Shown: in pieces, positions 470 through 26,233 of the stretch
Numbering within the stretch: position 1 is the stretch's first letter
Layout of the letters: each line of letters starts with the position of its first letter
DNA from: Chloroflexota bacterium
GTDB taxonomy: Bacteria; Chloroflexota; Limnocylindria; Limnocylindrales; CSP1-4
Length of the DNA stretch: 28,297 bases
Assembly: GCA_041299865.1 (NCBI GenBank)
Contig: JBFYUV010000154.1
Coordinates: forward strand, 1-28,297
Reading direction: 5' to 3'
Translations under genes and position numbers: made by a program
Notes under the pieces: model-generated
Told to the model about the DNA's origin: nothing
Seen by the model: only the letters and a program-made list of their open reading frames with translations
Databases searched by the model: none

Positions 470-477
470 CGCCACCG

Positions 478-529: not shown

Positions 530-542
530 CGTCAGCACGAAT

Positions 543-556: not shown

Positions 557-572
557 CTTTGTGAGGTCCGCG

Positions 573-4186: not shown

Positions 4187-4275
4187 GGCTCGCCTCCAGG
4201 TGAGGCGCGTATCCGTGTCAGCCGCGCCCTGCCCTTCGGCGACGCCTGCCGGTCCATGCGCTACTGTCGGCCGTG

Positions 4276-5538
4276 ATGGGTGACGAGCGGGTGACGCCGG
4301 CGACCACGCGCGGTGCCACCATCGAGTTCGACCATGTCAGCAAGCGTTACGCCCCCGCCACGCGCGGTGCCATGGCGCAGGGCGCGGTGGAGGACCTCAC
4401 GCTGACGGTGCCCGCGGGACGCATCTGCGTCCTCGTCGGCCCCTCGGGCTGCGGCAAGACCACGACCCTCAAGATGGTGAACCGGCTCATCGAGCCAAGC
4501 ACCGGCCGGATCCTCATCGACGGGCAGGACATCGGCAGCCGCGACGTCACCGAGCTGCGCCGCAGTATCGGCTACGTCATCCAGCAGACCGGGCTCTTCC
4601 CTCACCAGACCATCGCCCAGAACGTGGCCACGGTGCCGCGCCTGCTGGGCTGGACCGAGACCCGCCAGAGGTCCCGCACCGACGAGCTCCTGGCGCTCGT
4701 GGGTCTTGAGCCCGGACGATACCGGGAGCGCTATCCGAGCCAGCTCTCCGGCGGCGAGCGGCAGCGCGTGGGGGTGGCTCGCGCCCTGGCCGCGGACCCG
4801 CCGGTCATGCTCATGGACGAGCCCTTCGGCGCGGTCGACCCCATCGTCCGCGAACGTCTCCAGAACGAGTTCCTGCGACTGCAGGAGGGCCTCGCCAAGA
4901 CGATCCTCTTCGTGACCCATGACATCGACGAGGCCATCAAGATGGGCGACCTCGTGGTCGTCATGGAGCAGGGCGGCCGCATCGCCCAGGCCGGGGCGCC
5001 GGCCGACCTGCTGGCCCAGCCCGCCTCGGCGTACGTGGCCCGCTTCGTCGGTGCCGACCGCGGCCTCAAGCGTCTCTCGCTCTACCGGGTGGCGGACGTG
5101 GCCCTCGTCGAGGCACCCCTGGCGCGCGTGGGGGAAGCCAGGCAGGACGTCCGCGCGCGGGCCGAGCGCAGCGGGGATCGCCACGTGCTTCTCGTGGACG
5201 ATCGTGATCGACCGTTGGGCTGGCTGGACGCCCATGACCTTCGCTCGGAGGGCCCGCTCGGCGAGCCCGATGCCGACCCCATGTCCCCGCTGCTCGACCG
5301 GCGCACCACCCTCAAGGACGCCACGTCGCTGCTACTGGATGAGGAAGTGCGCAGCGGCATCGTGGTCGATCGCAGCGGAGGGGTCCTTGGCCTCCTGACC
5401 CTGGAGGCGGTCATGGGCTTCATGCGCGACGACCGCTCACGCGAGGTGCCCCCGGACATCGCGGATGCCGTGGCGGAGGTGCTGGCCCATCCGGCCGGCG
5501 CCCACGACCACGGTCCGGACGAGTCGAGCCCCGCGTGA
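4276..5538 (+). CDS. Opu/ProV-type ABC transporter ATP-binding protein with C-terminal CBS pair
   Basis: GPSGCGKTTTLKMVNRLIEP, LSGGERQRVGVARALAADP, MLMDEPFGAVDP, FVTHDIDEA, then a CBS-like region. Start is ATG 4276 or in-frame GTG 4273, downstream of TACTGT (4262-4267). Confidence 0.9.
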   Translation: MGDERVTPATTRGATIEFDHVSKRYAPATRGAMAQGAVEDLTLTVPAGRICVLVGPSGCGKTTTLKMVNRLIEPSTGRILIDGQDIGSRDVTELRRSIGYVIQQTGLFPHQTIAQNVATVPRLLGWTETRQRSRTDELLALVGLEPGRYRERYPSQLSGGERQRVGVARALAADPPVMLMDEPFGAVDPIVRERLQNEFLRLQEGLAKTILFVTHDIDEAIKMGDLVVVMEQGGRIAQAGAPADLLAQPASAYVARFVGADRGLKRLSLYRVADVALVEAPLARVGEARQDVRARAERSGDRHVLLVDDRDRPLGWLDAHDLRSEGPLGEPDADPMSPLLDRRTTLKDATSLLLDEEVRSGIVVDRSGGVLGLLTLEAVMGFMRDDRSREVPPDIADAVAEVLAHPAGAHDHGPDESSPA

Positions 5539-6197
5539 TCGAGATCCGCTGGGACTGGATCGCTGAGCACCTCGATGATGTCGCCGACAAGACCTGGCAG
5601 CATCTCCAGCTGCTGGTCATCCCCATGCTGGCGGGCTTCTTCATCGCCCTGCTCCTGGGCGTGCTGGCGCTCCGGCGTCCGGGCACCGTCGGGCCGGTCA
5701 CGGCCATCACGGGGCTCCTTTACACCATCCCCAGCCTGGCGGCCTTCGCCCTCCTGCGGCCCATCTTCGGCCTGACGCTGGCCACGGCCGTGATCCCGCT
5801 GACGGCCTACACGCTGCTCATCCTGTACGTCAACACGGTAGCCGGCCTGCGCTCGGTGCCTGCGGAGGTCAACGAGGCCGCCACGGCCATGGGCTACAGC
5901 AGTGCCAGCCGCTTCTGGCGCGTGCAGTTGCCGCTGGCCGTGCCGCTCATCATGGCCGGCGTCCGGGTGGCCGCGGTGACCACCATCGGCCTGGTCACGG
6001 TGGCCTCGATCATCGGCGGGGACCGCTTCGGCGGCCTCGGCCAGTTCATCACCGAGGGACTCCAGACCTCCTTCGACACGAAGGTCTACCTCGGGGCGGT
6101 CGGGTCGGTCATGCTGGCCTTCGTCGTCGACATCCTGCTGCTGGGCACCCAGCGCCTGCTGACTCCCTGGGCGCGGGCTCGGACCTTGTCCACGTGA
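5535..6197 (+). CDS. Opu/ProW-type ABC transporter permease
   Basis: LYTIPSLA, EAATAMGYS...RFWRVQLPLAVPLIMAGVR (EAA motif), GGLGQFI. GTGA overlap with the ATPase gene. Confidence 0.9.
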   Translation: MIEIRWDWIAEHLDDVADKTWQHLQLLVIPMLAGFFIALLLGVLALRRPGTVGPVTAITGLLYTIPSLAAFALLRPIFGLTLATAVIPLTAYTLLILYVNTVAGLRSVPAEVNEAATAMGYSSASRFWRVQLPLAVPLIMAGVRVAAVTTIGLVTVASIIGGDRFGGLGQFITEGLQTSFDTKVYLGAVGSVMLAFVVDILLLGTQRLLTPWARARTLST

Positions 6198-6967
6198 GCG
6201 GCCTGGAGGCGCTGCTGGCCTACCTCGCGGACGGTGGTGCCTGGCAGGGACCCGCAGGCGTCCCGAGCCGCCTGGTCGAGCACCTCGTTCTCTCCGGCCT
6301 GGCCGTGCTGACGGCCAGCCTGGTGGCACTGCCGTTGGGGTTCTACATCGGCCACACGGGACGGTTCCAGCTGCTCGGGCTGAACCTCGCCAACATCGGC
6401 CGAGCCATCCCCTCGTATGCGGTCATGGTCATGGTCTTTCCGGTCGCCCTGGCCGCGGCGGCCCCGCTCGGCTATGACCCCCGCCTAGGTCTCACCTTCC
6501 TGCCCATCTTCGTGGCCATGACGCTGCTGGCCATCCCGCCCATCCTCGTGGCTACCTTCGCCGGCATCGCCGAGGTGGACCGAGATGTCGTCGAGTCGTC
6601 TCGGGGCATGGGCCTCACCGAGCGTCAGATCCTGCGGCGCGTCGAGCTGCCCCTGGGGCTGCCGGTCATCATCGGCGGCTTCCGCGTGGCGACCCTGCAG
6701 ATCATCGCCACGGCGACGCTCGGGGCGGTCCTCTCCGGGGGTGGCTTCGGGCGCTTCATCATCGACGGCCTGGCCAGGCGGGACGAGGGCATGCTGTACG
6801 CGGGAGTCCTGCTCGTGGCCGCCCTCGCCATCGGCATCGACCTGCTGCTGGCTGGCCTGCAGCGACGCTTCACGCCACGGGGTGTCAAGGTGGCATCCGG
6901 CGAAGAGGTCGTGGAGGCCATCGGAGATCTCGGCTCCGTCGCGCCTCCGTCCCTGCGACGCGCCTGA
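6194..6967 (+). CDS. Opu/ProW-type ABC transporter permease
   Basis: ANIGRAIPS, ESSRGMGLTERQILRRVELPLGLPVIIGGFR, GGFGRFIIDG. GTGA overlap with the previous permease. Confidence 0.9.
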   Translation: MSGLEALLAYLADGGAWQGPAGVPSRLVEHLVLSGLAVLTASLVALPLGFYIGHTGRFQLLGLNLANIGRAIPSYAVMVMVFPVALAAAAPLGYDPRLGLTFLPIFVAMTLLAIPPILVATFAGIAEVDRDVVESSRGMGLTERQILRRVELPLGLPVIIGGFRVATLQIIATATLGAVLSGGGFGRFIIDGLARRDEGMLYAGVLLVAALAIGIDLLLAGLQRRFTPRGVKVASGEEVVEAIGDLGSVAPPSLRRA

Positions 6968-7062
6968 CGCTGTCATCCCGCGGTCGCGGCGGACAGAGTA
7001 CGGTTATGTTTCGGCCGTGGCCGCCAGACGGGCGGCCGGCCAGCAGTCCCAGGGAGGTTGCC

Positions 7063-8016
7063 ATGCGGCATCACCGCAGACTCGCCCTCGGTGCGTCGCT
7101 CCTGGCCGCTCTGGCCACGCTCGGCGCGTCCGGTGGCGCCATCGTGTCGGCCCAGGAGCAGCCCACGGTCCGCGTCGGATCGGATGACTTCTACGAATCG
7201 AAGCTCATGGCCGAGATCTATGCGCAAGCCCTGGAGGGCGCCGGCTACACGGTCGATCGGCAGCTCGGGCTGGGCAGCCGCGATACGCGCGCCCCGGCCT
7301 TCGAGGAGGGCCAGGTGGACCTGGTGCCTGAGTACGTGGGCTCCGGCCTGGGTTACTACGTGCTGGCCTCCGACGATCCCGGCCTGGCCGCGCTGGCCGT
7401 GGGCGGCGACGGCGAGACGAACCGCGCCAACCTGCAGGCCGCCTACATGCTGCTGGGCATCGAAGCCACAGTGCTGGGCATGACGCCCGGCGAAGACACC
7501 AACGCGGCGGCCATCCGCGCGGATACGGCCGCCGAGCTCGGCCTCTCGAAGCTGAGTGACGTGCCGCCCGTGGCCGACCAGCTCGTCTTCGGCCTGCCCC
7601 CGGAGTGCGAGACCCGGCCGCTCTGCGCTGGCGCTCTCGAGCAGTACGGCATCGACTTCGCCACCATCCAGAAGGAATCGCTGGCTGCCTGCGGGGCTGA
7701 GATCGCCGATGCCCTGGCCGGGGGGGCGGTCGACTTCGGCTGGCTCTGCTCCACCCAGCCGGCCATCGCTCAGAACGGCTTCGTCGTCCTCGAGGATGAC
7801 CTGGACACCCAGCCTGCGGAGAACCTGGCCCCGGTCGTCCGAGACGACTTCCTGGCCCAGGTCGAGGGCGGCGCTGCCACGCTGGCGGCCATCCTCGACC
7901 CTGTCTCGGCGGCCATCAGCACCGAGATCCTGACCGAGCTTGGCGTGCGCGTCGCCATCGACCAGGAGGACGTCGAGGACGTCGCGGCCGACTTCCTGGC
8001 CGGCCTCGACTCCTGA
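7063..8016 (+). CDS. OpuAC/OsmF-family ABC substrate-binding protein (about 317 aa), ligand uncertain
   Basis: SD GGGAGG before ATG 7063. Signal peptide MRHHRRLALGASLLAALATLGASGGAIVSA, then VRVGSDDFYES...AEIYAQALE, DLVPEYVGS, VVLEDD...QPAENLAPVVR. Confidence 0.85.
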   Translation: MRHHRRLALGASLLAALATLGASGGAIVSAQEQPTVRVGSDDFYESKLMAEIYAQALEGAGYTVDRQLGLGSRDTRAPAFEEGQVDLVPEYVGSGLGYYVLASDDPGLAALAVGGDGETNRANLQAAYMLLGIEATVLGMTPGEDTNAAAIRADTAAELGLSKLSDVPPVADQLVFGLPPECETRPLCAGALEQYGIDFATIQKESLAACGAEIADALAGGAVDFGWLCSTQPAIAQNGFVVLEDDLDTQPAENLAPVVRDDFLAQVEGGAATLAAILDPVSAAISTEILTELGVRVAIDQEDVEDVAADFLAGLDS

Positions 8017-8073
8017 CCCCGTGCTGGCCGTCCGGACAGCGCCCTGATCGCTGGCAGGTGCACGCGAACGCAC

Positions 8074-8100
8074 GAAGGCCCCGGGTCACCCGGGGCCTTC
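8074..8100. terminator. Perfect 12-bp hairpin between convergent operons (probably a bidirectional terminator)
   Basis: GAAGGCCCCGGG-TCA-CCCGGGGCCTTC between the SBP stop (8016) and the iolE stop (8130). No long U-tract. Confidence 0.75.
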
Positions 8101-8129
8101 AGCATGTTCGGCGGCCGTTCAGGGCGAAC

Positions 8130-9071
8130 TCAGAAGCCTCGCTCGGCGAGCCACTCGCGATTGGCCGTGTGCAGGGCCAGCAGCGCCTCCGGCGTGTCCG
8201 CCGGTTTCAGGAAGCGATCCTGCTCGATGACGACCCAGCCTTCCCAGGCGCGGGCCTTGAGACCCTCGAGGAAGCCATCCAGACCGGTCGTGCCGAGACC
8301 CAGCTGGCAGAAGACGCCCCGGTCCCAGGCCTCCATGAGCCCGCCGCCGGAGCTGGCGACCTGCCGCAGGACGGCGAGGTCACAGTCCTTGACGTGGACG
8401 TGTCGCACACATCCGGCATAGCTGTCCAGTAGCTCCAGCGGATCCGCGCCACCGAAGAGTGCGTGACCGGTGTCCAGGCACATGCCCACGAGCGACGTGT
8501 CGAGGGCATCGAAGACGGCGTGGATCTCAGCCGCCGATTCCACGTAGCTTCCGGCGTGGAAGTGCAGCACGGGATCGAAGCCGCGCTCGCGGGCCGCCTC
8601 GCCGGCTCGATGCAGGTTGTCGATGAGGACCCCGAAGCGCTCCTTGGGCAGGGCGGCCTCGGGGTGTTCCGGGATCTGGCCCGCCCAGCGCATGCGCTCG
8701 GGCTCGACGGAGGCATCGGCCAGCACGGCCTTGGGCATGACGTCGTCCGGCCGGCCGGCGGCCAGCAGGTCGAGCACGCCGATCATCCACTCGCGATCCT
8801 CGGCCGCGTGCTCAGCCCGGCTGAAGCGCTGCGGCAGGAAGGCCCCCACCAGCGAGAGGCCACGAGCGGCCAGCCGCGACCTCAGCTGCCCCGCGTCGCC
8901 GAAGTAGCCTGGCGGTCCGAGCTCCGTGCCGGCATAGCCGGCCGTCGCCATTTGGTCCAGCATGTGCTCCGGCTGGAGCTGCAGGGGGTCATCCTCGGTC
9001 TTCTCGAAGACCCCCCACGAGCATGGGGCTGCCGCGACCCTGACGCCGCCCGAACCGTTCGAGCCGCTCAT
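8130..9071 (-). CDS. iolE: myo-inosose-2 dehydratase (xylose-isomerase-like TIM barrel; about 313 aa)
   Basis: AAAPCSWGV, GYAGTELGPPGY, LHFHAGSYVE, MCLDTGH, HVHVKD, VVIEQD metal ligands. Last gene of the iolB-iolD operon. Start moved to ATG 9071 behind GGGAAGGGG. Confidence 0.8.
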   Translation of the reverse strand: MSGSNGSGGVRVAAAPCSWGVFEKTEDDPLQLQPEHMLDQMATAGYAGTELGPPGYFGDAGQLRSRLAARGLSLVGAFLPQRFSRAEHAAEDREWMIGVLDLLAAGRPDDVMPKAVLADASVEPERMRWAGQIPEHPEAALPKERFGVLIDNLHRAGEAARERGFDPVLHFHAGSYVESAAEIHAVFDALDTSLVGMCLDTGHALFGGADPLELLDSYAGCVRHVHVKDCDLAVLRQVASSGGGLMEAWDRGVFCQLGLGTTGLDGFLEGLKARAWEGWVVIEQDRFLKPADTPEALLALHTANREWLAERGF

Positions 9072-9121
9072 GAAAGACCCCCTTCCCTGACTATGAAGAG
9101 ACGCGACGCCACCCTGGACGC

Positions 9122-10993
9122 CTAGACGAAGGAGCGCTCGCGGGCCAGGTTGCCCTCGTACGCGAGGCGTGCCGCGCGGACACGCTCGGACGTCGAGACC
9201 TCGGCCACGGGCACGTCCCACCAGGACTCGTAGTCCGGTACCGGCGGCTCGGGGTTGACCTCGACGACGATGACCACCGGTCCACCCTGCATGCCTTCCG
9301 CGGTGGCCAGGGCACCCTCCAGCTCGGCAGGCGTGCTGGCCATCAGCACGCGTGCGCCCAGGCTGGCAGCGTTGGCGGCGAAGTCGATGGGCAGGACCTC
9401 GCCGGTGAAGGTGCCGCTGGACGGGTCACGGAAGCGGAAGTCGTTGAAGGGATTGTCCCCGCCGCAGGCGGCCGAGAGGTTGCGGATGCAGCGGTAGCCG
9501 TGGTTGTCCAGGAGCACGATCGTCATCGAGACGCGCTCCTGGCAGGCCGTCAGGATCTCATTAGCGAGCATCAGGTAGGACCCATCGCCGACCATGACGT
9601 AGACGCGGCGGCCTGGCTCGGCCATGGCCACGCCCAGGCCTCCGGCGATCTCGTAGCCCATCGTCGAGAAGCCGTACTCCATGTGATAGGTGTCCGGACC
9701 GCTGGCACGCCAGATCTTGTGCATGTCGCCGGGCAGCCCGCCGGCCGCGCAGACGACCACGCCGTCGGCGCCGGCCGCCTCGTTGACGAGCCGGATGACC
9801 TCCGGCTGGGAGACATGCTCGCTGGCTGCCAAGTGGCGAACACGATCGACCTCGGTGTTCCACTCGCCGCGCAGCCGTTCGACGAGCGCCAGACGCTCAG
9901 CCGAGGCGCCGCGCCAGGCGCGTGCCTCCAGGGCCGCCTGCAGCTCCTCCAGGGTGACGCGGGCATCACCGTGAAGCGGCAGCGAGGCTGCCTTGGCGGC
10001 GTCCAGCTCAGCCACGTTGATGGAGACGAAGGCGACCTCGGGATCCTGCCACGAGGACCAGCTCATGGTCGGGAAGTCGGAGAGCCGCGTGCCGACGGCG
10101 ATGACGAGGTCGGCGTCGCGAGCGATGCTGTTGGCGGCCGTGCCACCGGCCGATCCCAGCGCCCCCACCTGGAAGGGATGGTCCCAGGGCAAGGCGCCCT
10201 TGCCGGACTGTGTCTCCGAGACCGGGATGCCGAAGCGACGGGCGAAGGCATCCAGTGCCGCGCTGGCGTCGCTGTAGATGACGCCGCCACCGGCCACGAT
10301 CATGGGGCGTTGCGCGGCAGCGATGCGCTCTGCGGCCCGCGCCAGCAGGGAGGCGTCCGGCCGTGGTCGAGCGATGACCCAGGTGCGCGGCGCCAGGAGC
10401 TCCTCCGGCCAATCCCAGGCCTCGGCCTGCACGTCCTGGGGCAAGGCCAGCGTCACGGCACCGGTCTCGGCCGGCGAGGTCAGCACGCGCATGGCCGCCG
10501 GCAGGGCGTCGATGAGCATCTCCGGCCGCTCGATGCGGTCGAAGTAGCGCGACACCGGGCGCAGGGCGTCGTTGACCGAGAGGTCGCCTGCCTCCGGCCG
10601 CTCGAGCTGCTGGAGGACGGGCTTCACGCGCCGCGTGGCGAAGCGATCGCCCGGCAGCAGCAGGACGGGCAGCCGGTTGACCGTGGCATTGGCGGCTCCG
10701 GTCACGAGGTTGGTGGCGCCGGGGCCGATGGACGTCGTGCAGGCGAAGGTGCGCAGGCGGCGGCTCTGCTTGGCGAAGGCCGCGGCCGTATGGACCATGG
10801 CTTGCTCGTTGCGCGTCTGGTAGAAGCGCACGCTGTCCTGGGCAGCTTCCAGCGCCTCACCCATGCCGGCCACGATGCCGTGGCCGAAGATGCCGAAGAC
10901 GCCCTCGAAGAAGCGCTGGCGATGGCCGTCGCGTTCCACGTGCTGGTTGGCCAGCCAGGTCACGACGGCCTGGGCGACGGTGGTGCGTGGCAT
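9122..10993 (-). CDS. iolD: 3D-(3,5/4)-trihydroxycyclohexane-1,2-dione acylhydrolase (ThDP-dependent; 623 aa)
   Basis: TVAQAVVTWLANQ, GIFGHG, RNEQAMVH, TTSIGPGATN, PVLQQLE, NDALRPVSRYFDRIERPE, HMEYGFSTMGYEIAG, GDGSYLM...DNHGY, WWDVPVAEVS. Confidence 0.95.
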   Translation of the reverse strand: MPRTTVAQAVVTWLANQHVERDGHRQRFFEGVFGIFGHGIVAGMGEALEAAQDSVRFYQTRNEQAMVHTAAAFAKQSRRLRTFACTTSIGPGATNLVTGAANATVNRLPVLLLPGDRFATRRVKPVLQQLERPEAGDLSVNDALRPVSRYFDRIERPEMLIDALPAAMRVLTSPAETGAVTLALPQDVQAEAWDWPEELLAPRTWVIARPRPDASLLARAAERIAAAQRPMIVAGGGVIYSDASAALDAFARRFGIPVSETQSGKGALPWDHPFQVGALGSAGGTAANSIARDADLVIAVGTRLSDFPTMSWSSWQDPEVAFVSINVAELDAAKAASLPLHGDARVTLEELQAALEARAWRGASAERLALVERLRGEWNTEVDRVRHLAASEHVSQPEVIRLVNEAAGADGVVVCAAGGLPGDMHKIWRASGPDTYHMEYGFSTMGYEIAGGLGVAMAEPGRRVYVMVGDGSYLMLANEILTACQERVSMTIVLLDNHGYRCIRNLSAACGGDNPFNDFRFRDPSSGTFTGEVLPIDFAANAASLGARVLMASTPAELEGALATAEGMQGGPVVIVVEVNPEPPVPDYESWWDVPVAEVSTSERVRAARLAYEGNLARERSFV

Positions 10994-11023
10994 CCGGACC
11001 CCCTCTCTCGACTCAGCGTCCGC

Positions 11024-12112
11024 TCAGGCCCTGACATCCGGGTTGGGGATGAGCAGGTCGTCGATGATGGCCACCAGCTCCCAGTACGACGAGACGAAGG
11101 CTCGCAGCGTGCGCATGGTGGCGCCGTAGGTGTCGAACTGGGCTGGCGTCAGGGCCTCGGGCTCGTAGGCCTTGACGAACTCCGGGACGCGCGCCATGAG
11201 CTCGTCGACGTAGACCGACGGGACCGGATCGTGCCAGCGATCCCTGACCTCGACGTCCGAGGCGTTGAAGAGCCGCTGCCAGTTGGCCGGGATCGTCATG
11301 GAGACATCACCGCCGATGAGCTCCGACCAGTGGAGGTGGTGGCGATAGGCGGCCGCCAGCAGGCGCGCCCGGTAGCCGCGCTCCTCGAAGATGGCGGCGG
11401 CGCGCTTGAAGACGGCGATGCCGGCCCAATCCCCGGCCGCTGGGTGGATGGTGATGCCGTCGCGATCACAGGACTTCTTCACCCAGTCGTCCGTGCGGCC
11501 GATCATGATCGTGCAGATGGGTGACATCCAGGAGGTGTCATGGCCTTCGGCCTCGCGCCGGGCCAGGGCGCGCTCCACGGCCGCCCCCACGGCCACCGCC
11601 TGCGACACCGTGAAGGAGACGGTGGCGTTGATGTTCATGCCCTCGTACGTGGCCTGCTCGATGGCCTCCAGGCCGGCCGCCGTGGCCGGGAACTTGATCT
11701 GCACGTTGGGCGCCAGGGTGTCGAAATGGCGCGCCTGTTCGAGCATCTTCTGCGGGGAGCGATTGAGCGTCGGGTCGATCTGGATGGAGAGGCGGCCCTT
11801 CTGTCCGTGGTGCTGCTGGTAGATGGGCTCCAGCATCTTCCAGCCCCGGATGGCCATCTCCTCGATGACCTGCCAGGCGATCTGCTGGTCGGTCCAATCG
11901 AGATGCTCGGCGGCGATCTCGCGCACGCGCGGCGCCCAGGTGTCGTACTCCTGCTTCATCACCGAGCCCACGATGGTGGGGTTGGTGGTGGCCCCCACGG
12001 CCCCGTTCTCGATGGCGTAGGTAAGCTCAGCGGCGTTGCAGGAGTCGTTCCAGTAGTCGGTGGGGAAATCCGTCGCCGTGCGCAGCAGCGGGCTCGCCAT
12101 GGTCGTGGCCAT
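11024..12112 (-). CDS. Transaldolase/fructose-6-phosphate-aldolase fold enzyme with an atypical active site (362 aa), embedded in the iol operon
   Basis: WNDS, GATTNPT, RLSIQIDP, Schiff-base VQIKFPAT (K140), INATVSFTVSQA, TIMIGRTDDW, AAAYR. SD AAGGAG upstream. Confidence 0.85.
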   Translation of the reverse strand: MATTMASPLLRTATDFPTDYWNDSCNAAELTYAIENGAVGATTNPTIVGSVMKQEYDTWAPRVREIAAEHLDWTDQQIAWQVIEEMAIRGWKMLEPIYQQHHGQKGRLSIQIDPTLNRSPQKMLEQARHFDTLAPNVQIKFPATAAGLEAIEQATYEGMNINATVSFTVSQAVAVGAAVERALARREAEGHDTSWMSPICTIMIGRTDDWVKKSCDRDGITIHPAAGDWAGIAVFKRAAAIFEERGYRARLLAAAYRHHLHWSELIGGDVSMTIPANWQRLFNASDVEVRDRWHDPVPSVYVDELMARVPEFVKAYEPEALTPAQFDTYGATMRTLRAFVSSYWELVAIIDDLLIPNPDVRA

Positions 12113-12134
12113 CGATCGCTCCTTGTCCGTGGTC

Positions 12135-12974
12135 CTAGCGTGGGCTCGTGGGATCCCAGTCCATCAGCCAGGCATGATCCCTGTCGAGGGTGAAATGCCA
12201 TGCCCGGTGGGGGCCGGCCATCACGTTGAGGTAGTAGGCATCGTACCCGGCGGGGGCGCCCACGGGATGGTAGCCGCGGGGCACGAGGATGACGTCGCCG
12301 TCACCCGGGGCGAAGGACTCGTCGAGTGTCCGGTCCGCCGTGTAGACGCGCGCGAAGGCCCAGCCCTCCGGTCGCGCGAACCGGTAGTAGTAGAGCTCCT
12401 CGAGATAAGCCTCCCGGGGTGGATCCTCCGTGTCGTGCTTGTGAGGGGGGTAGCTCGACCAGTTGCCACCGGGCGTGAAGACCTCGAAGAGGATGAGCCG
12501 GCCGGCCGGCGCCGTGGGCGGCAGCAGGTGATGGATGCGACGCTCGGTGACACCGTGCCCACGCGTCTCGACGTGGATATCACCGGCCTCGATGAGGCGC
12601 TCGTGATACTCGTCCGCGCCTGGCGCGTCGGCGATCACGACCGTGGCCTGTGTCTCGGCCACGATCTCCACGTCCGTGCCGGGTGCCAGCAGGAGCACGG
12701 GAGGTGGCGGCCCGGCGAAGACGCTGGCGCGGCTGCCCAGCGAGGCATAGCGCTGGCGGCCGGCGCGCGCGCTGACCGTGCCCTCAACCACGATGACGGC
12801 GACCTCGTGGTCGTCAGCCGGACGGGCGAGCCCGGCACCGGCAGCCAGCCGATGCTCGGCGAAGCCCACATAGCGCCAGCCGGCATCCTCGGGCCGGATG
12901 TCATGGACACGTCCGTTGTCCGGGTCCGGGTTCCCGGCTCGGCGATGGAGGGCGGTGCCCGGGCTGGTCGTCAT
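12135..12974 (-). CDS. iolB: 5-deoxy-glucuronate isomerase (KduI/IolB cupin; 279 aa)
   Basis: AGWRYVGF, EVFTPGGNWSSYPPHKHD, LEELYYYRF, LVPRGYHPVGAPAGYDAYYLNVMAGP. SD AGGAG. Confidence 0.95.
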   Translation of the reverse strand: MTTSPGTALHRRAGNPDPDNGRVHDIRPEDAGWRYVGFAEHRLAAGAGLARPADDHEVAVIVVEGTVSARAGRQRYASLGSRASVFAGPPPPVLLLAPGTDVEIVAETQATVVIADAPGADEYHERLIEAGDIHVETRGHGVTERRIHHLLPPTAPAGRLILFEVFTPGGNWSSYPPHKHDTEDPPREAYLEELYYYRFARPEGWAFARVYTADRTLDESFAPGDGDVILVPRGYHPVGAPAGYDAYYLNVMAGPHRAWHFTLDRDHAWLMDWDPTSPR

Positions 12975-13037
12975 GGTGGAGCGCTCCTGTCGTCAGGCCA
13001 CGTGACGGCGCCCAGGGGGCGAGCAGGTGCTGGCGAC

Positions 13038-13068
13038 TTGACGCGACCCGGTGGGCGTCACCATGATA
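13038..13068. promoter_or_regulatory. Overlapping divergent promoter elements between iolB and the LacI gene
   Basis: Plus strand TTGACG (13038-13043)-N18-CATGAT (13062-13067). Minus strand TATCAT (13068-13063) points toward iolB. Confidence 0.45.
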
Positions 13069-13135
13069 CGGCGTCACGATATCGAGAGCGGCCGCCCGTC
13101 CAGCCGGAGCGGCCCCGCGCTGACGAGCGACGAGG

Positions 13136-14194
13136 ATGAGCGCAGGCAGACCAGCCACCGTTCGGGATGTCGCCGCTCGTGCGGGTGTCTCGATCGCCAC
13201 GGTGAGCCGCGCCCTGCGGGGGCACGCCAACGTGGAGCCGGCCACGCGCCAGCGGGTCGAGGAGGCCGCCCGCGCCCTCAGCTACCGACCCTCGGGCGTG
13301 GCCCGCTCGCTGCGGCTGCGCGCCACCCGCACCATCGGCCTCATCGTCACGGACATCGAGAACCCCTACTTCCCGCAGGTCGTGAGCGCTGTCGAGGATG
13401 CCGCCCGCGAGCGCGGCTACTCCGTCCTGCTCGCTGACGGCCGCCGCGATCCGGAGCGCGAGATCGAGTCGCTCGAGGTGCTCGCCGAGCGTGAGGTGGA
13501 TGGCCTCATCATCGCCAGCACGACCCTCACCCTGCGGCACCAGGTGCGCATCCGCGAGGTGCCCTGCCCGGTCGTCATCGTCAACAGCGAGTCGACGGTC
13601 TCGGCTGTGCCGGCCGTGCTCTCCGACAATGCCGGCGGCGGTCGGGTGGCTGCCGAGCACCTGCTGGGCCTGGGGCACCGGCGGCTGGCGTACCTGGCGG
13701 CGCCGTCCGCGGATGACCGGGCCGTCCACGAGCGCATCGAGGGTGTCCGCGCCGCCCTCTGGGCTGAGGGCCTGGCACGCGGCGCCCTCATCATCGTCCC
13801 GGCGGCCCCGGGCGTGGACGGTGGTGCCCTCGCGGCGGTCATGGCCATGGGCGCGGACAGCGCCATCAGTGCCCTCATCTGTTCCAACGACCTGACCGCC
13901 ATCGGTGTCATCCGCGGCCTCCGCAGCCTCGGCCTGCGAGTGCCCGCGGACGTCAGCGTGGTGGGCTTCGACGACATCGAGATGGCCGCCTACGTGGACC
14001 CACCGCTCACGACCGTCCGCCAGGCGACCGATGAGATGGGCCACTGGGCGGTGGCCAGTCTCCTGCAGCGCATCGACCGGGGACGTGAAGCCACGGCCGG
14101 CCAGGTCGGCGGCACGCCCGGCCGCACCGTGCGCCTGCCGGTCACGCTCGTGACACGGGGCTCCACGGCGCCGGCCGGCCGCACCCCGGCCTGA
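13136..14194 (+). CDS. LacI-family transcriptional regulator, probable local inositol regulator (352 aa)
   Basis: ATVRDVAARAGVSIATVSRAL HTH, YRPSGVARSL hinge, TIGLIVTDIENPYF, NDLTAIG, VSVVGFDDI, PPLTTVRQ. Confidence 0.92.
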   Translation: MSAGRPATVRDVAARAGVSIATVSRALRGHANVEPATRQRVEEAARALSYRPSGVARSLRLRATRTIGLIVTDIENPYFPQVVSAVEDAARERGYSVLLADGRRDPEREIESLEVLAEREVDGLIIASTTLTLRHQVRIREVPCPVVIVNSESTVSAVPAVLSDNAGGGRVAAEHLLGLGHRRLAYLAAPSADDRAVHERIEGVRAALWAEGLARGALIIVPAAPGVDGGALAAVMAMGADSAISALICSNDLTAIGVIRGLRSLGLRVPADVSVVGFDDIEMAAYVDPPLTTVRQATDEMGHWAVASLLQRIDRGREATAGQVGGTPGRTVRLPVTLVTRGSTAPAGRTPA

Positions 14195-14291
14195 GTCGGC
14201 AGCATCGGTCGCACCGCATCGAACCCCTGCCCGCGGAGCCGTCTGTCGACTGGAGGGGTCTCGGCACACGGGTGTCGGTGCCGGATGGGCG

Positions 14292-14335
14292 ATGCACCAC
14301 GGATAGCCCGGCCGTATGCTGTGGTTCCAGAACCA
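14292..14335 (+). promoter_or_regulatory. Putative iolG operon promoter (ATGCAC-N17-TATGCT) followed by the inverted repeat TGGTTC-CA-GAACCA
   Basis: TATGCT at 14315-14320, ATGCAC at 14292-14297, and a perfect 6-bp inverted repeat at 14322-14335. Confidence 0.5.
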
Positions 14336-14407
14336 ACGACTCGTGTCCGGCCGATCGAGCGGGTCGCACGCCCGCCACGCGGCCGGCGATAGAAGGAGGT
14401 GGATCGG

Positions 14408-15402
14408 GTGAGGGTCACCCTCTTCGGCGCCGGTCGCATCGGGCCCCTGCATGCACGGACGTTGCTGACGACGGGCGCGGTCGATCACTTGGTGATCGTG
14501 GACGTCGTCCCTGAGCGTGCCGCGGCCGCTGCGGAGGCGCTTGGTGGCAGCGTCGCTCCGTCCGTCGACGAGGCGCTCGCCACAGCCGACGCGGCTGTCA
14601 TCTGCGCCTCCACGGACGACCATCCGGGCCTCATCAGGGCAGCCATCGGCCGCGGCATCCCGACCTTCTGCGAGAAGCCGCTGGCGGCCAGCCTTGCCGA
14701 GTCCATCGCCGTCCGCCGTGACATCGAGGCTGCCGGCGTACCCTTCCAGCTTGGCTTCCAGCGACGCTTCGACCCTGCCTACGTGGAGGCCAGGCGCCTC
14801 ATCGAGTCGGGGGCCATCGGCGATATCCACGCCCTCTCGCTGCGCAGCCATGACCCGGAGCCGGCCTCCGAGGAGTTCATCGCCTCCTCCGGCGGCATGT
14901 TCCGCGACCTCTCCATCCACGACCTGGACATCCTGCGGTTCCTCTCCGGTCGCGAGGTGGACGAGGTCTATGTCATCGGCTCGGCCAAGGGTTTCCCTGT
15001 CTACGAGAAGTACGACGATCTCGCCAACGCCGTGGCCGTCATGCGCCTCGATGACGGCACCCCGGTGGCGCTCACCTGGACACGGCATGACCCCCTGGGT
15101 CACGATGTGCGCACGGAGGTCTTCGGCTCGCGTGACAGCGTGAGCGTGGGTCTTGGCCCGCGCATGCCGCTGCGCTCGGTGGAGCCCGGCGTGCCGCCGC
15201 CGTCCGGCCCACCCTGGCACATCTTCCTTGACCGCTGGGACGACGCCTATCGCGACGAACTCATCGCCTTCGTGGATGTCGCCCGCGGTGCCCGCCCGAG
15301 CCCTTGCACGGCCAAGGACGGCGTGGAGGCACTGCGTATCGCCGAAGCCCTCACGGTCTCGGCAGCGGAGCACCGTCCCGTGAGGCTCGCGGAGATCACG
15401 GC

Positions 15403-15406
<4 letters not shown>
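14408..15406 (+). CDS. iolG: Inositol 2-dehydrogenase (Gfo/Idh/MocA family; about 332 aa)
   Basis: MRVTLFGAGRIG Rossmann fold, FCEKPLA, GFQRRFDPAY, SGGMFRDLSIHDLD. Start moved to GTG 14408, 7 nt after AAGGAGGT. Stereoisomer specificity cannot be read from the sequence. Confidence 0.8.
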
Positions 15407-16227
<821 letters not shown>

Positions 16228-16238
16228 GGGATGAGGGC

Positions 16239-17267
16239 ATGACCGACGCGATGAGTGCAGGGGCTGGATCGGACCTCGGCGACACGGGCGCGCGATCGGC
16301 GGGGGTCATCCGTGTCATGGGCTGGTTCGACCGCTGGGGCGTGCTGTTGATGGTGGCCATCATGGCCCTGCTGTCCTGGCTGGCCCAGCCCGACGTCTTC
16401 CTGAGCGAGAGGAACATCTTCAACATCTTCCGCCAGACGGCGTTCTACCAGATGCTGGCGCTGGGCCAGTTCATCGTCATCGTCACGGCCGGCATCGACC
16501 TCTCCATCGGCTCTGTCCTGGCGCTCTCGATGATGTGCGCCGCCATCCTTGCCGACGGCGGGGCTGCCTGGCCGCTCGTCATGGTCGTCCCGCTGCTCGT
16601 CGGCTTCCTCGTCGGGAGCGTGAACGGGCTGGGCCTCACGAAGCTGCACATGCCCCACCCCTTCATCATGACGCTGGGCATGATGTTCGTGGCCCGGGGG
16701 GCCACGTACCTCATCTCCGGCGGGCGGCCCATCACCGGCATGCCGCCCGAGGTGACCTGGCTGGGCTCCGGCAACATCGAGATCCTGGGCCTCCACATCC
16801 CGGTCAGCCTCGTCATCGTCGTCATCATGTTCGTCATCGCCTGGTTCTTCCTGCAGCACCTGCGCACGGGACGGCACATCTTCGCCCTCGGAGGGAACCC
16901 GCAGGCAGCGCGCGTCTCGGGCATCAACGTGGACCGCACACTCGTCATCGCCTATGCCCTGTGTGGCTTCATGGCAGGCTTCGCCGGTTTGCTGCTGGCC
17001 GGGCGCACGAACTCGGGTTTCCCCAACGCCGGCGAGGGGGACGAGCTCGTGGCCATCTCCGCGGTCATCATCGGTGGCGCCAGTTTCTTCGGTGGCCGCG
17101 GCACCGTTCTGGGTGTCTTCGCGGGCGTCCTCGTCATCGGCATGCTGCGCAACCTGCTGAACCTCTCCAACGTGCAGGTCTTCTGGCAGCAGGTGCTCAT
17201 CGGCGTCGTCATCATCGCCGTGGTGGCCTTCGACGTGTTCCGCCGTCGATTGGCAGCCGCCTCGTAG
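16239..17267 (+). CDS. RbsC-type sugar ABC permease (342 aa)
   Basis: TAGIDLSIGS, HPFIMTLGMM, TGRHIFALGGNPQAARVSGIN, ELVAISAVIIGGASFFGGRG. Confidence 0.92.
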   Translation: MTDAMSAGAGSDLGDTGARSAGVIRVMGWFDRWGVLLMVAIMALLSWLAQPDVFLSERNIFNIFRQTAFYQMLALGQFIVIVTAGIDLSIGSVLALSMMCAAILADGGAAWPLVMVVPLLVGFLVGSVNGLGLTKLHMPHPFIMTLGMMFVARGATYLISGGRPITGMPPEVTWLGSGNIEILGLHIPVSLVIVVIMFVIAWFFLQHLRTGRHIFALGGNPQAARVSGINVDRTLVIAYALCGFMAGFAGLLLAGRTNSGFPNAGEGDELVAISAVIIGGASFFGGRGTVLGVFAGVLVIGMLRNLLNLSNVQVFWQQVLIGVVIIAVVAFDVFRRRLAAAS

Positions 17268-17282
17268 TCCACGGTCAGCCCG

Positions 17283-17299
17283 CGGGTCGGATCGACCCG
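17283..17299. other. Hairpin CGGGTCG-GAT-CGACCCG in the permease-SBP spacer
   Basis: Perfect 7-bp stem 15 nt after the permease stop. Function (attenuation or mRNA stabilisation) unknown. Confidence 0.35.
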
Positions 17300-17433
17300 G
17301 ATCCATCGCGGCCCCCGGCCGTGATGACGGAGGGCACGGAAGGGAGGTGACAGAGCAGGCTCTGAGGCGCCATCATGCAGGTAGCGGGCAGTCCGGGCTT
17401 CGGCGCTCGCTGAAGACCCAGGTAGGAGGAGAC

Positions 17434-18396
17434 ATGAAGGCAACACGCTTCCTCGCGGTCGGAGGGGCCGCGATGCTGGCCCTCGCGATCGTGGGACCAG
17501 TCGCTGCACAGGATGAGAGCCCGGCAGCTGCGAGCAAGGACCCAGGTGCCGCGGCCGGCGCCAAGCTCTTCGTCAACATGAAGGGCCCGTCGGCGGGTAA
17601 CCCGTTCTGGGCGCTCGTCGAGCAGGGTGCCGTGCAGGCCGGCGCGGACTACGGCGTGGACGTCCAGGTCGTGGCCCCCTCAGCCGAATCCGACATCCCC
17701 GGGCAGATCGCCCTCATCGAGGACAACGCAGCACAGGGCGCTGCCGGAATGGCCATCGCCGTGACGGACGCCGTGGCCCTCAACCCGGCCATCCAGGCCG
17801 CCATGGACCAGGGCGTCAAGGTCGTCTGGGTCGACTCGGGCGGTGACAACGAGGGCGTCACCTACATCGGCACGGACAATGCCGTCGGCGCCGCCCTGGC
17901 CGGCAAGTACCTCTGCGACACCCTGGAGCCCGGCAGTAAGGTAGCTATCCTCCAGGGCCTCATCACCACCACCACCGGCATGGCCCGAGCCGATGGCTCC
18001 AAGGCGGCCGTCACCGAGTGTGGCCTGGACCTCGTTATGGAAGTGCCCGCCAACTGGGACCGCGCCCAGGGTCTAGCGGCCACCGAGGACATCATCACGC
18101 AGCACCCGGACCTGGCCGGCATCTTCGGCAGCAATGACGAGATGGCCCTCGGGGCCGTGGAGGCACTGCGTGCCGCCGATCTCCTCGACCAGGTCACGGT
18201 CGTCGGCTACGACGCCAACCCGGATGCCCGAGAGGCCGTCCTGGCCGGTGACATGGAAGCCACCATCGCCCAGAACCCCATCAACATGGGTTACTTCGGC
18301 GTGGAGAGCCTCATCAAGCTCATCAACGGCGAGACGCTCGATCCCACCATCGACACGGGCGTCGAGCTCATCACCGCGGAGAACGCCGCCTCGTAA
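17434..18396 (+). CDS. RbsB-like sugar/inositol ABC substrate-binding protein (about 320 aa)
   Basis: SD AGGAGGA before ATG 17434. Signal peptide MKATRFLAVGGAAMLALAIVGPVAA, then NPFW, IGTDN, ANWDR, SNDEMALGA, VGYDA, TIAQNP. Confidence 0.9.
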   Translation: MKATRFLAVGGAAMLALAIVGPVAAQDESPAAASKDPGAAAGAKLFVNMKGPSAGNPFWALVEQGAVQAGADYGVDVQVVAPSAESDIPGQIALIEDNAAQGAAGMAIAVTDAVALNPAIQAAMDQGVKVVWVDSGGDNEGVTYIGTDNAVGAALAGKYLCDTLEPGSKVAILQGLITTTTGMARADGSKAAVTECGLDLVMEVPANWDRAQGLAATEDIITQHPDLAGIFGSNDEMALGAVEALRAADLLDQVTVVGYDANPDAREAVLAGDMEATIAQNPINMGYFGVESLIKLINGETLDPTIDTGVELITAENAAS

Positions 18397-18509: not shown

Positions 18510-19406
18510 TCAGCGCACGCTGTGCGCCAGCCGCTGCTTCAGCTGGTCGAGGGTGGGCACGGAGTTCATGCCCGGCCCTTCCACGAGCAGGCTGCCCGCC
18601 AGTGCCCCCAGGTGCAGGTCCCGGCCCATGTGGCGGCCCTCCGAGCCCGCCACGATCCGAGCTGCCACGAGGCCGGCCAGCATGGTGTCACCGGCGCCGG
18701 TGGCGTCGATCTCGATGGGCGACGGGACGCTGGGGTAGGTACGTGCTTCCACGAGACGATGATCCTGGAAGCGGATGAGCAGACCGCCCAGGAGTCCGGC
18801 CGTCAGCAGCAGTTCCGCAGAGGGGGGCATCCATTGGCCGATGCTGCGCACCGGCAGGTCGCCGGGGATGTCGTGCCGGCTGACGGCCAGGATGTCCGCG
18901 CGGCGGACGAGGAGGGAAGGTCCTGGTTCCAGTGGCCGCACCCGAACTCCAGGTTGCAGGTGGCGCAGGATGCCCTGCCAGGCCAGGGCCACACAAGCCT
19001 CAGGCGGAGGTGCGCTGGCCCACTCGTCGTGGATCTCGCTGGCCACCGGCGCCAGCACCCAGGCGGGCACGTCACGCCAGCGCCCGGGCAGCGCGGCCAC
19101 GGGTACCGGATCGCTGGGACCATCGCAGGTCTGGACGCGTCCCGCCAGGGTCTCCGTGTTGCGGAAGACGGGCCCCTTGGCCAGCGGCACTTCGATGATC
19201 TCCGCCCCGGCGTCGCGGATCAGGTCGAGCTCATCGGCCGTACGGGCCTCGTCATCGAGCCCGAGCAGGACGCCGGTGCGCACGCCCAGGCGCGCCAGGG
19301 CGAGGGCACCGTAGGTCACGCCGCCACCCAGCAGCCAGCCTCGCGGTGCCTCATCGTTGAGATCGCGCGTGGCCGCACCGACGATGACCACATCCGGCTT
19401 GCGCAT
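18510..19406 (-). CDS. PfkB/ribokinase-family kinase, substrate unknown (298 aa)
   Basis: N-terminal VVIVGAATRD...GGGVTYGALALARLG and C-terminal anion hole IDATGAGD. SD GAGGG. Confidence 0.85.
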   Translation of the reverse strand: MRKPDVVIVGAATRDLNDEAPRGWLLGGGVTYGALALARLGVRTGVLLGLDDEARTADELDLIRDAGAEIIEVPLAKGPVFRNTETLAGRVQTCDGPSDPVPVAALPGRWRDVPAWVLAPVASEIHDEWASAPPPEACVALAWQGILRHLQPGVRVRPLEPGPSLLVRRADILAVSRHDIPGDLPVRSIGQWMPPSAELLLTAGLLGGLLIRFQDHRLVEARTYPSVPSPIEIDATGAGDTMLAGLVAARIVAGSEGRHMGRDLHLGALAGSLLVEGPGMNSVPTLDQLKQRLAHSVR

Positions 19407-25383: not shown

Positions 25384-25389
25384 GCGCGG

Positions 25390-25398
25390 ACTATACCA
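25390..25398 (-). promoter_or_regulatory. Extended -10 TGGTATAGT overlapping the methyltransferase stop codon
   Basis: Minus strand TG-G-TATAGT-CCGCGC-GTG. The TAG within it (25393-25391) is the methyltransferase stop. Confidence 0.55.
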
Positions 25399-26233
25399 AC
25401 CGAGCCACGAGGATGGCCCGGTGACTTCCGGAGCTATAGGGTATGGATAGATGGTCCCCCCAGAGGTCCACGCTGTCATAGCCCGATCCCAGGGCCAGAT
25501 CGGCGAGGTGCGTCGCGGAGACGAGGTGCAGGGTGTCGGTCCGGGTCACGCGGGCAAGCGGCCCGCCATGAGCCGGCGTCCACTCGAAGACCTGGCAGAG
25601 CGTCACGCTGGAGGCCTCGGCATCGTGGCGCGCGCTCACGAGCTTGGCGACGAGGTCGCCGCTCTCCGGCTCGTGCCGCAGCCACTCAACCTGGAGGCGC
25701 CCATCGAAGTCGGCCAACTCGTCGTCACCAGGCGTGCTGAACTCGACCACGGCGATGCCACCAGGTCGCAGCTGCTCGCGCATGGCCCGGAGCAGCGCCA
25801 CGCGGGCCTGATCGTCCTCGGCCAACAGGAACGTGTTCACCGCGATGAAGACCATGGTGAAGCGCTCGCTGGTCCGGAAGGCCGTGAAGTCACCCTCGTG
25901 CAGGCTGAGCCGCTCGCGCTCGATGGGACCGCGAACGAGGTCCCAGCGTGCCCACGCCCGCTCCAGCATGGCGCCATCGTGGTCAACGCCGACGACGCGG
26001 TGGCCTGCCATGGCAAGCGGGATGGCCAGCCGGCCGCTGCCGACGGCCAGCTCGAGGACGGGCCCGCCCGACTCATGGGCCAGCCGCTGGTAGAGCTCCG
26101 CGTCATAGGAGACGTCCAGCACGTCCAGGTCGTAGAAGCGCGCCAGCGCCTCCGCGCGCTGCCGCTCGGTCAGGCCGGCGGCTGCTGCCGCGCGGTCGGG
26201 TCTGGCTAGCCTGGCCTTCGGCAGTGCGTCCAT
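25391..26233 (-). CDS. Class I SAM-dependent methyltransferase (280 aa)
   Basis: ARFYDLD, VLELAVGSGRLA (motif I), VVGVD, LHEGDF, MVFIAVNTF, LRPGGIAVVE. Confidence 0.85.
   Translation of the reverse strand: MDALPKARLARPDRAAAAAGLTERQRAEALARFYDLDVLDVSYDAELYQRLAHESGGPVLELAVGSGRLAIPLAMAGHRVVGVDHDGAMLERAWARWDLVRGPIERERLSLHEGDFTAFRTSERFTMVFIAVNTFLLAEDDQARVALLRAMREQLRPGGIAVVEFSTPGDDELADFDGRLQVEWLRHEPESGDLVAKLVSARHDAEASSVTLCQVFEWTPAHGGPLARVTRTDTLHLVSATHLADLALGSGYDSVDLWGDHLSIPYSSGSHRAILVARLV

Follow-up and report, generated by a model that had tools for sequence, protein, structure and literature searches.

A transaldolase subfamily found in the place of IolC in bacterial inositol clusters, and a candidate kinase-independent route of inositol catabolism

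Inositol, which derives from phytate and from plant and microbial lipids, is a major carbon source in soil, and its breakdown by bacteria has so far been treated as one pathway with the kinase IolC at its core. Here we analysed a stretch of 28,297 nucleotides from a Chloroflexota bacterium (GCA_041299865.1, contig JBFYUV010000154.1; hereafter the window, meaning the whole of this stretch), which carries an island of inositol (iol) genes between positions 8130 and 18396. One of them encodes a protein of the transaldolase fold, here called X. Our sequence comparisons support the existence of a variant of the iol pathway in which a new transaldolase subfamily would replace IolC, and also IolJ where present. 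The best explanation that comparative genomics offers for X, and one that we favour with moderate confidence, is that it would be a transaldolase acting on 5-dehydro-2-deoxy-D-gluconate (DKG) and passing the dihydroxyacetone unit of this ketose to glyceraldehyde-3-phosphate. More tentatively, X may define a new class of enzyme, a DKG:glyceraldehyde-3-phosphate dihydroxyacetone transferase with a Gln/Met variant of the active site, that would free inositol catabolism from IolC and IolJ in hundreds of mostly uncultured species.

The initial annotation of this DNA had read the island as encoding uptake, IolG, IolE, IolD and IolB, with one operon in the order iolB-X-iolD-iolE, and the profile searches confirmed both the gene content and this layout (Table 1). 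The island is formed by two divergent units, a minus-strand unit with iolB, X, iolD and an iolE-like gene, and a plus-strand unit with a LacI-type regulator, an iolG-like gene and an ATP-binding cassette (ABC) transporter. It therefore holds the iolB, iolD, iolE and iolG genes, the regulator and the transporter of an iol cluster; the iolE-like and iolG-like products score under the cutoffs of their models, yet they are members of the expected families and their genes are conserved in synteny. The core kinase of such clusters, the PfkB-family 5-dehydro-2-deoxygluconokinase IolC, is missing from the window. Indeed, no IolC, class II IolJ, DeoC/LacD-like aldolase or IolA was detectable in the 28.3 kb with Pfam, NCBIfam and tblastn searches using seed proteins. 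The claim that neither operon has an IolC-type kinase is literally true; note that a PfkB-like open reading frame (ORF), discussed below, adjoins the island outside both operons. X is the second cistron of its operon, as had been proposed, with spacers of 22 nt (12113-12134) and 30 nt (10994-11023) on its two sides and its own Shine-Dalgarno sequence, AAGGAG, 7 nt upstream of the ATG.

X matches PF00923 over residues 21-279 (Table 1), which places it in the superfamily of the transaldolases (TAL) and fructose-6-phosphate aldolases (FSA). Its AlphaFold2 model has a predicted local distance difference test score (pLDDT) of 80.6 and a predicted template-modelling score (pTM) of 0.81, and the top Foldseek matches of the model are all transaldolases (template-modelling (TM) scores 0.71-0.77, E ~1e-15), the best one, at 0.77, being 3r5e from C. 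glutamicum. Identity to the solved transaldolases is only 19-24%, and X scores far under the NCBIfam transaldolase models PRK03343 (115 bits, cutoff 367), TIGR00876 (82 bits, cutoff 234) and TIGR00874 (41 bits, cutoff 396), as well as under the FSA model TIGR00875 (52 bits, cutoff 246). NCBIfam r20 holds no dedicated model for the X subfamily, and there is no member of it among the solved structures. Judging from these profiles and from the predicted fold, X has the fold of a transaldolase without being one of the housekeeping type.

The residues of X were matched to those of E. coli TalB by alignment to the C. glutamicum and N. gonorrhoeae transaldolases (CgTAL and NgTAL), and their conservation was taken over 81 family members. 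The signature of the subfamily is D23, N44, Q111, K140, N162, T164, F167, T201, M203, R206 and R257. K140 is the counterpart of the Schiff-base lysine and, like D23, N44, N162 and T201, is invariant or nearly so in the 81 sequences. The latter four align with D17, N35, N154 and S176 of TalB, which hold the C1- and C3-hydroxyls of the dihydroxyacetone unit, and T164 aligns with T156 of TalB, which takes part in a Glu-water-Thr triad. R206 and R257, kept in 81 of 81 members, align with R181 and R228, the distal phosphate site of TalB. Since this donor set and both arginines are conserved, the predicted pocket fits a ketose with a free CH2OH beside the carbonyl and with an anionic group at its distal end. 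Gln111 (81 of 81 members, and also the Clavibacter homologue described below) occupies the position of E96, the catalytic Glu of TalB, and of Q59 in FSA, while Met203 (81 of 81 homologues) stands where TalB has F178 and FSA has Tyr131, its proton donor. FSA combines the Gln with the catalytic Tyr; X has the Gln and, at the Tyr position, Met203. The acid/base arrangement of X is thus unlike that of either a transaldolase or FSA.

The neighbourhoods of X were compared in 80 species loci, each comprising X and 10 kb on either side, in which ORFs were called and clustered. Genes were labelled with the window's own proteins and with IolC, IolJ, IolA and DeoC-like seeds from annotated plasmid iol clusters, and the aldolases of all loci were also scanned with NCBIfam (LacD-like, PRK12858). 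The initial annotation had predicted that X homologues would be enriched beside iolB, iolD and iolE, and this is what we found: X is linked with iolB in ~41 loci, with iolD in ~38, with an IolE-like gene in 43 and with iolG in 41; among the loci left over, many are short contigs. X adjoins iol genes in ~two thirds of the 80 loci, with representatives in Chloroflexota, Actinomycetota, Acidobacteriota, Spirochaetota, Myxococcota and further groups. The order iolB-X-iolD was seen repeatedly in Chloroflexia, Anaerolineae, Terriglobia and Acidiferrales, and Solirubrobacterales, Spirochaetes and Myxococcales often have X paired with IolA. A CoA-acylating (methyl)malonate-semialdehyde dehydrogenase of the IolA type (TIGR01722, above cutoff) is linked to X, and often adjacent to it, in 27 of the 80 loci. 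The iolE-like gene beside iolD is conserved in ~40 loci, and a LacI-type gene accompanies the X clusters in ~35. The association of X with iol genes is far beyond chance, and it recurs across phyla.

By contrast with these partners, IolC was present in only 4 of the 80 X loci, a class II IolJ in none of them, and a LacD-like class I aldolase (PRK12858, above cutoff) in a single locus, L046, which also has IolC. Among 123 + 92 otherwise unnamed neighbour genes, no kinase or aldolase family came up repeatedly in Pfam scans; the matches were to HAD phosphatases, binding proteins, regulators, dehydrogenases and TIM-barrel isomerases. Some of these neighbours are of interest in their own right. In five Anaerolineae loci (L022, L026, L029, L053 and L055) tandem genes for HAD-family phosphatases, 10 members in all, lie upstream of a LacI-iolB-X operon, and an inositol-monophosphatase-family gene accompanies X-type iol clusters in six loci (for example L024, 6275-7129). 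The HAD phosphatases and inositol-monophosphatase genes may feed inositol phosphates into the pathway.

As a control, an alignment of the IolC proteins from four co-occurrence loci and from Deinococcus was used to collect 80 metagenome loci anchored on that IolC type (L085-L164), and the comparison was restricted to the loci with both iolB and iolD, which number 34 in the X-anchored set and 44 in the IolC-anchored set. As the initial annotation had anticipated, X is anti-correlated with iolC at the level of the cluster. Thus, 31 of the 34 X clusters had X and no IolC within 10 kb, two had X and IolC, and one had X, IolC and an aldolase. The IolC-anchored clusters were divided between those with IolC only (27 of 44), those with IolC and a recognisable aldolase (12) and those with IolC and X (5), and none of them had all three. 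The slot between iolB and iolD belongs to IolC in 30 of the 44 IolC-anchored loci; X takes it as the sole gene in 16 of the 34 X-anchored loci, and the order iolB-X-iolC-iolD was found in four loci. The series B-C-D, B-X-C-D and B-X-D looks like an insertion of X followed by the loss of IolC. The X proteins intermingle (70-79% identity) whether or not their clusters have IolC, and they have all the signature residues in common, which suggests that a redundant IolC was lost repeatedly. Residues that would separate the X proteins with IolC from those without it were also sought, and no alignment column did so.

In a published survey, most of 7,384 species had iolB, iolC, iolD and iolE together within 10 kb, 1,024 genomes had just three of the four genes, and the remainder were treated as incomplete; the same survey notes B-C-D-E as the gene order in Chloroflexi.

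The control also changes the weight of one argument. The absence of IolJ and of any class II aldolase, to which the initial annotation had pointed, holds for the whole window. However, it does not discriminate, since the 27 IolC-only clusters have no recognisable linked aldolase either; a "missing IolJ" is general in this IolC clade, so that the argument carries little weight. Among the 80 IolC-anchored loci (for example L087, L091, L097, L107, L108, L126 and L131), 14 have a LacD-like class I aldolase of the PRK12858 type and only five a class II IolJ, and separate modules of IolC and an aldolase, with no iolB or iolD nearby, occur in L107-L109.

The kinase-independent pathway that had been put forward for this island finds support in the synteny of X, in its position in the IolC slot and in its active-site residues. 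Inositol would be imported by the ABC transporter, as its family assignment suggests, oxidised by IolG, dehydrated by the IolE-like protein and opened by IolD, and IolB would convert the product by isomerisation into the ketose DKG. Starting at C6, DKG reads CH2OH-CO-CHOH-CHOH-CH2-COO-, with the D-threo configuration of fructose (derived here from the D-gluco configuration); it resembles a 5-deoxy-fructose with a carboxylate in the place of CH2-O-phosphate. Once phosphorylated, DKG no longer has the free-hydroxyl head. To our knowledge, TAL and FSA enzymes do not accept donors phosphorylated at C1 and need this head. We infer that Lys140 of X would form the Schiff base at C5 of unphosphorylated DKG, bypassing IolC and IolJ, with the carboxylate placed at the Arg206/Arg257 site, where fructose-6-phosphate has its phosphate. 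Cleavage between C3 and C4 would free malonate semialdehyde, and the dihydroxyacetone unit would most likely be transferred to glyceraldehyde-3-phosphate to give fructose-6-phosphate. Phosphofructokinase and fructose-bisphosphate aldolase of glycolysis would then do the work of IolC and IolJ, at an equal net cost in ATP, and IolA, which is unlinked in this genome, would oxidise malonate semialdehyde to acetyl-CoA. If X makes malonate semialdehyde, a linked IolA is expected, as occurs in the 27 loci mentioned above, and since X would need the ketose, iolB should be retained, as was seen.

Several observations weigh against this reading, and most of them touch on the possibility that X is a class I aldolase for phosphorylated DKG that replaces IolJ only, the kinase being an IolC encoded elsewhere or the neighbouring PfkB-like protein. 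Eight clusters hold an intact IolC together with X (L036, L045, L046, L073, L086, L099, L103, L118 and L137 taken together), and seven of these eight have no other aldolase, as expected if X served as one. None of the IolC-anchored loci combines X (5 loci) with a recognisable aldolase (12 loci); however, this zero overlap is not significant (~1.4 expected by chance), and L046 has X, IolC and the LacD-like aldolase in one locus. On plasmid pCI3 of Clavibacter michiganensis subsp. insidiosus (L083, 15341-16465), a homologue 45% identical to X, with the full signature, lies beside a GntR regulator, iolC, a DeoC-like aldolase and iolB/D/E. Gaiella occulta and Solirubrobacter soli are reported to grow on inositol with annotated iolABCDEG and no iolJ, for which an unannotated aldolase was suggested, and metagenome-assembled genomes (MAGs) of Gaiellaceae and Solirubrobacterales carry X. 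The IolC status of the X loci is known for 10 kb on each side only, a PfkB-like gene adjoins the island in the window's clade, and the adjacency of IolA and the retention of iolB fit an aldolase for phosphorylated DKG equally well.

Nevertheless, we consider that such an aldolase is an unlikely explanation of X. IolC is normally a core, clustered gene, and 31 of the 34 X clusters are without it; repeated loss of iolC is a more parsimonious account than its moving elsewhere, again and again, in many lineages. X sits in the slot of IolC and not in that of an aldolase. Moreover, all the residues that hold the free C1-hydroxyl are kept, in a superfamily not known to take C1-phosphorylated donors, and the PfkB-like gene is absent from the X loci outside one syntenic clade. 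As regards the Clavibacter plasmid, both routes may coexist in this cultured plant pathogen, which is a tractable organism.

The PfkB-like ORF that abuts the island encodes a divergent member of this kinase family (Table 1). It is convergent with the gene of the ABC binding protein, is not of the IolC type and was not detected by the IolC seeds. Its matches in the PDB are weak: ribokinases, and the N-terminus of TM0415 and a related PfkB-domain protein with non-significant E values of 0.06-0.08. Homologues with 64-97% identity share contigs with X homologues only in the window's clade, where both flanks are syntenic, and the YchF-side neighbourhood of the gene is wholly syntenic in the closest relatives. 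This ORF is a caveat to our reading rather than an established part of the system, and it may or may not be a hidden IolC.

Two further points count against a DKG transaldolase. The first is the Gln at the position of the catalytic Glu, which, with no Tyr as a substitute, leaves the acid/base catalyst unexplained. It bears on the possibility that X is an FSA-like lyase that splits DKG into free dihydroxyacetone and malonate semialdehyde, the C3 unit being recovered by an unlinked dihydroxyacetone or glycerol kinase; this route would still be kinase-independent at DKG. Gln111 corresponds to Gln59 of FSA, and engineered E96Q/F178Y variants of TalB, structures of which are among the fold matches of X, gain aldolase activity. 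Against this, the proton donor Tyr131 of FSA is replaced by the aprotic Met203 in all 81 homologues, no homologue of DhaK or DhaL was found in the 160 loci or in the window, and the FGGY and Dak families are absent from the recurrent neighbours. The aprotic Met203 and the lack of a linked dihydroxyacetone kinase would weakly favour transfer over hydrolytic release, and we regard the lyase as somewhat less probable still than the aldolase for phosphorylated DKG.

The second point is that, in ~19 well-flanked loci, neither iolB nor iolD lies within 10 kb of X. These loci hold sugar ABC transporters, short-chain dehydrogenase/reductase (SDR) or alcohol dehydrogenase (ADH) enzymes, luciferase-like oxidoreductases, IolE-like TIM barrels and class III aminotransferases, and they suggest that the X family may have other substrates as well. 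Among them, the Chloroflexia MAG loci L009-L011 and L016 (~6000-13000) share a different conserved block, with an ABC permease, a luciferase-like oxidoreductase, a Zn-dependent ADH, an IolE-like TIM barrel, an X homologue (61-66% identical) and a divergent class III aminotransferase; its substrate may be another one, for example an aminocyclitol or other keto-sugar. That X is just an ordinary or auxiliary transaldolase, balancing the pentose-phosphate pathway or gluconeogenesis, or an enzyme for another ketose with no role on DKG, is improbable: such loci, with sugar ABC transporters, SDR/ADH enzymes, TIM-barrel isomerases or aminotransferases but neither iolB nor iolD close by, the Pfam TAL_FSA domain and the label "transaldolase" given by automated pipelines are in its favour, but X reaches 81-115 bits where the transaldolase equivalog models require 234-367, the catalytic Glu is an invariant Gln, the synteny with iolB, iolD and IolA is kept across phyla with X in the position of IolC, and the family keeps its full-length signature at 65-90% identity across phyla.

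The DKG transaldolase proposed here would be widespread. Relatives of X in metagenomes and MAGs are 65-90% identical across phyla and include proteins named from Chloroflexota and Myxococcaceae. More than 7,800 matches were obtained among the 90%-identity representatives of a collection of 5.8 billion proteins, all labelled only "transaldolase" or "transaldolase family protein", and clustering at 50% left 293 representatives of the family (E <= 1e-30). A scan of GTDB found the subfamily in at least 587 species. No named isolates were present among the top matches or cluster members, and the one homologue in a plasmid collection is that of Clavibacter pCI3. In one protein of 655 residues (P0129), an AP_endonuc_2 domain, that is an IolE-like TIM barrel, is naturally fused to an X-type domain 39% identical to X.

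Since the window has a G+C content of ~70%, the real genes were chosen by their third-position GC. They were named with Pfam and NCBIfam profiles, and their starts were cross-checked against, and agree with, the gene calls on a 99% identical metagenome contig of 499 kb. The longest ORF of the iolE-like gene extends to 9221, and the start at 9071 was adopted from the call on that contig. The iolG-like gene starts with the GTG at 14408, located 8 nt downstream of GAAGGAGG. Upstream of it, at 14322-14335 of the plus strand and 73 nt from the start, lies the perfect palindrome TGGTTCCAGAACCA, a candidate operator for a LacI-family regulator. A shared LacI operator was considered and discarded: TGGTTCCAGAACCA has no copy upstream of iolB, and relaxed matches are at chance level. 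The region upstream of iolB has a direct repeat, GGCGTCAC(C/G)AT, at 13054 and 13070. No intrinsic terminators were detected.

Table 1. Features of the window, with their coordinates and the profiles on which the assignments are based.
Feature	Position	Strand	Evidence
DEAD/DEAH helicase with C-terminal MrfA Zn-binding domain (842 aa) and RNase_H_2-superfamily TPR protein (430 aa), 4-nt overlap	369-4186	+	
OpuA-type glycine-betaine/compatible-solute ABC transporter (ATPase with CBS domain, two permeases, OpuAC binding protein)	4273-8016	+	
iolE-like TIM barrel, probable 2-keto-myo-inositol dehydratase	8130-9071	-	PF01261 AP_endonuc_2; TIGR04379, 141 bits, under cutoff (290)
iolD, thiamine-diphosphate-dependent trihydroxycyclohexane-1,2-dione hydrolase	9122-10993	-	TIGR04377, 869 bits (cutoff 715)
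X, transaldolase-fold protein (362 aa), proposed DKG transaldolase	11024-12112	-	PF00923 TAL_FSA, 130 bits (gathering cutoff 27)
iolB, 5-deoxy-glucuronate isomerase, first cistron of iolB-X-iolD-iolE	12135-12974	-	TIGR04378, 298 bits (cutoff 205); PF04962
LacI-family regulator, divergent from iolB	13136-14194	+	PF00356 and Peripla_BP domains
iolG-like inositol 2-dehydrogenase (Gfo/Idh/MocA)	14408-15406	+	TIGR04380, 289 bits, under cutoff (355); GFO_IDH_MocA domains
Ribose-type sugar ABC transporter, presumed inositol uptake	15403-18396	+	PF00005, PF02653, PF13407
ABC transporter, ATPase	15403-16227	+	
ABC transporter, permease	16239-17267	+	
ABC transporter, binding protein	~17434-18396	+	
Divergent PfkB-family kinase-like ORF (298 aa), abutting the island	18510-19406	-	PfkB, E 3e-4; GG and DATGAGD motifs
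Response-regulator receiver domain fused to ParA/MinD-like P-loop ATPase	24211-25479	-	AAA_31/CbiA
UvrD-C / PD-(D/E)XK helicase-nuclease gene, incomplete at window end	26690-28297	-	

Other genes of the window are also listed in Table 1. The helicase and the TPR protein at its start resemble an MrfA/MrfB-like DNA-repair pair. The OpuA-type transporter genes border directly on the iol island, and close relatives share this synteny. The homologue of the incomplete helicase-nuclease gene on a related contig has 856 residues.

DNA sequencing runs with contigs that share ~half to two-thirds of the sampled 31-mers of the locus derive from metagenomes of soil, sediment, freshwater and wastewater. In metatranscriptomes of sediments and a wetland, short contigs match X, iolB, iolD and iolE at 90-99% identity, and one of them spans the iolD-iolE junction; the depth of such contigs is a poor measure of expression, and carry-over of DNA is possible.

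The initial annotation knew of no description of this variant, and we found none, nor any of a transaldolase-family enzyme in inositol catabolism, in the searchable full-text literature (subscription-only texts lie outside its reach). If the proposed activity is correct, X would be the second natural catabolic transaldolase, after sulfofructose transaldolase, known to use a ketose that has an anionic tail and no phosphate, which would suggest a general way for pathways to shed a kinase and aldolase pair; members of the subfamily outside iol clusters may do likewise for other unphosphorylated keto-sugars or keto-acids. It would also correct the pathway predictions for abundant uncultured soil lineages and explain some of the clusters with a "missing core gene". 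Surveys based on iolBCDE would then under-count the inositol users in Chloroflexota, Thermoleophilia, Acidimicrobiia, Acidobacteriota, Spirochaetota and Myxococcota, mostly uncultured bacteria from soil and sediment. X could, moreover, provide a new scaffold for C-C bond-forming biocatalysts that accept carboxylated aldehydes, and its Gln/Met active site raises a mechanistic question, namely what replaces the catalytic Glu or Tyr.

The canonical route of Bacillus and Salmonella, formed by IolC (PfkB family) and either IolJ (class II) or a LacD/DeoC-like class I aldolase, has the same position after IolB, also yields malonate semialdehyde and, with glycolysis, has the same net stoichiometry as the pathway proposed for X. 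Neither of its enzymes is homologous to X, and the chemistry that we propose would skip phosphorylated DKG. In canonical inositol systems, phosphorylated DKG is the inducer of IolR.

The closest structural relatives of X are the long transaldolases of C. glutamicum (3r5e) and N. gonorrhoeae (3clm; PRK03343, TIGR00876), with 94 bits, a TM score of 0.77 and 19-24% identity. As occurs in X, they have a C-terminally extended TIM barrel, the IK(I/F)PAT motif with the Schiff-base Lys, the TxNP and NxT motifs and both arginines of the phosphate site. However, they carry the catalytic Glu and an SFF(V/I)SR strand, whereas X has Gln111 and CT(I/L)M(I/V)GR, with Met203 in the place of the Phe, and they serve the pentose-phosphate pathway, whereas the context of X is inositol catabolism. 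FSA (E. coli FsaA) is like X in having Gln at the position of the transaldolase Glu, and it accepts unphosphorylated donors of the dihydroxyacetone type. Unlike X, it uses Tyr131 as the acid/base residue, where X has Met, and it is of the short, decameric type; the similarity between both proteins is weak (28 bits).

The closest mechanistic analogue of what we propose for X is the sulfofructose transaldolase of the sulfo-TAL route of sulfoglycolysis (for example BmSF-TAL, 8bc3). This catabolic enzyme of the TAL/FSA fold acts on a ketose that resembles fructose, is unphosphorylated and ends in an anionic group other than phosphate, moves the dihydroxyacetone unit to glyceraldehyde-3-phosphate and leaves a C3 aldehyde to a dedicated dehydrogenase, bypassing the kinase and the aldolase of the parallel pathway. 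The two proteins are not closely related (38 bits over ~65 residues between X and BmSF-TAL), and they differ in type and in pathway: sulfofructose transaldolase is short (~220 aa) and its substrate has a sulfonate tail, whereas X is long (362 aa) and would recognise a carboxylate.

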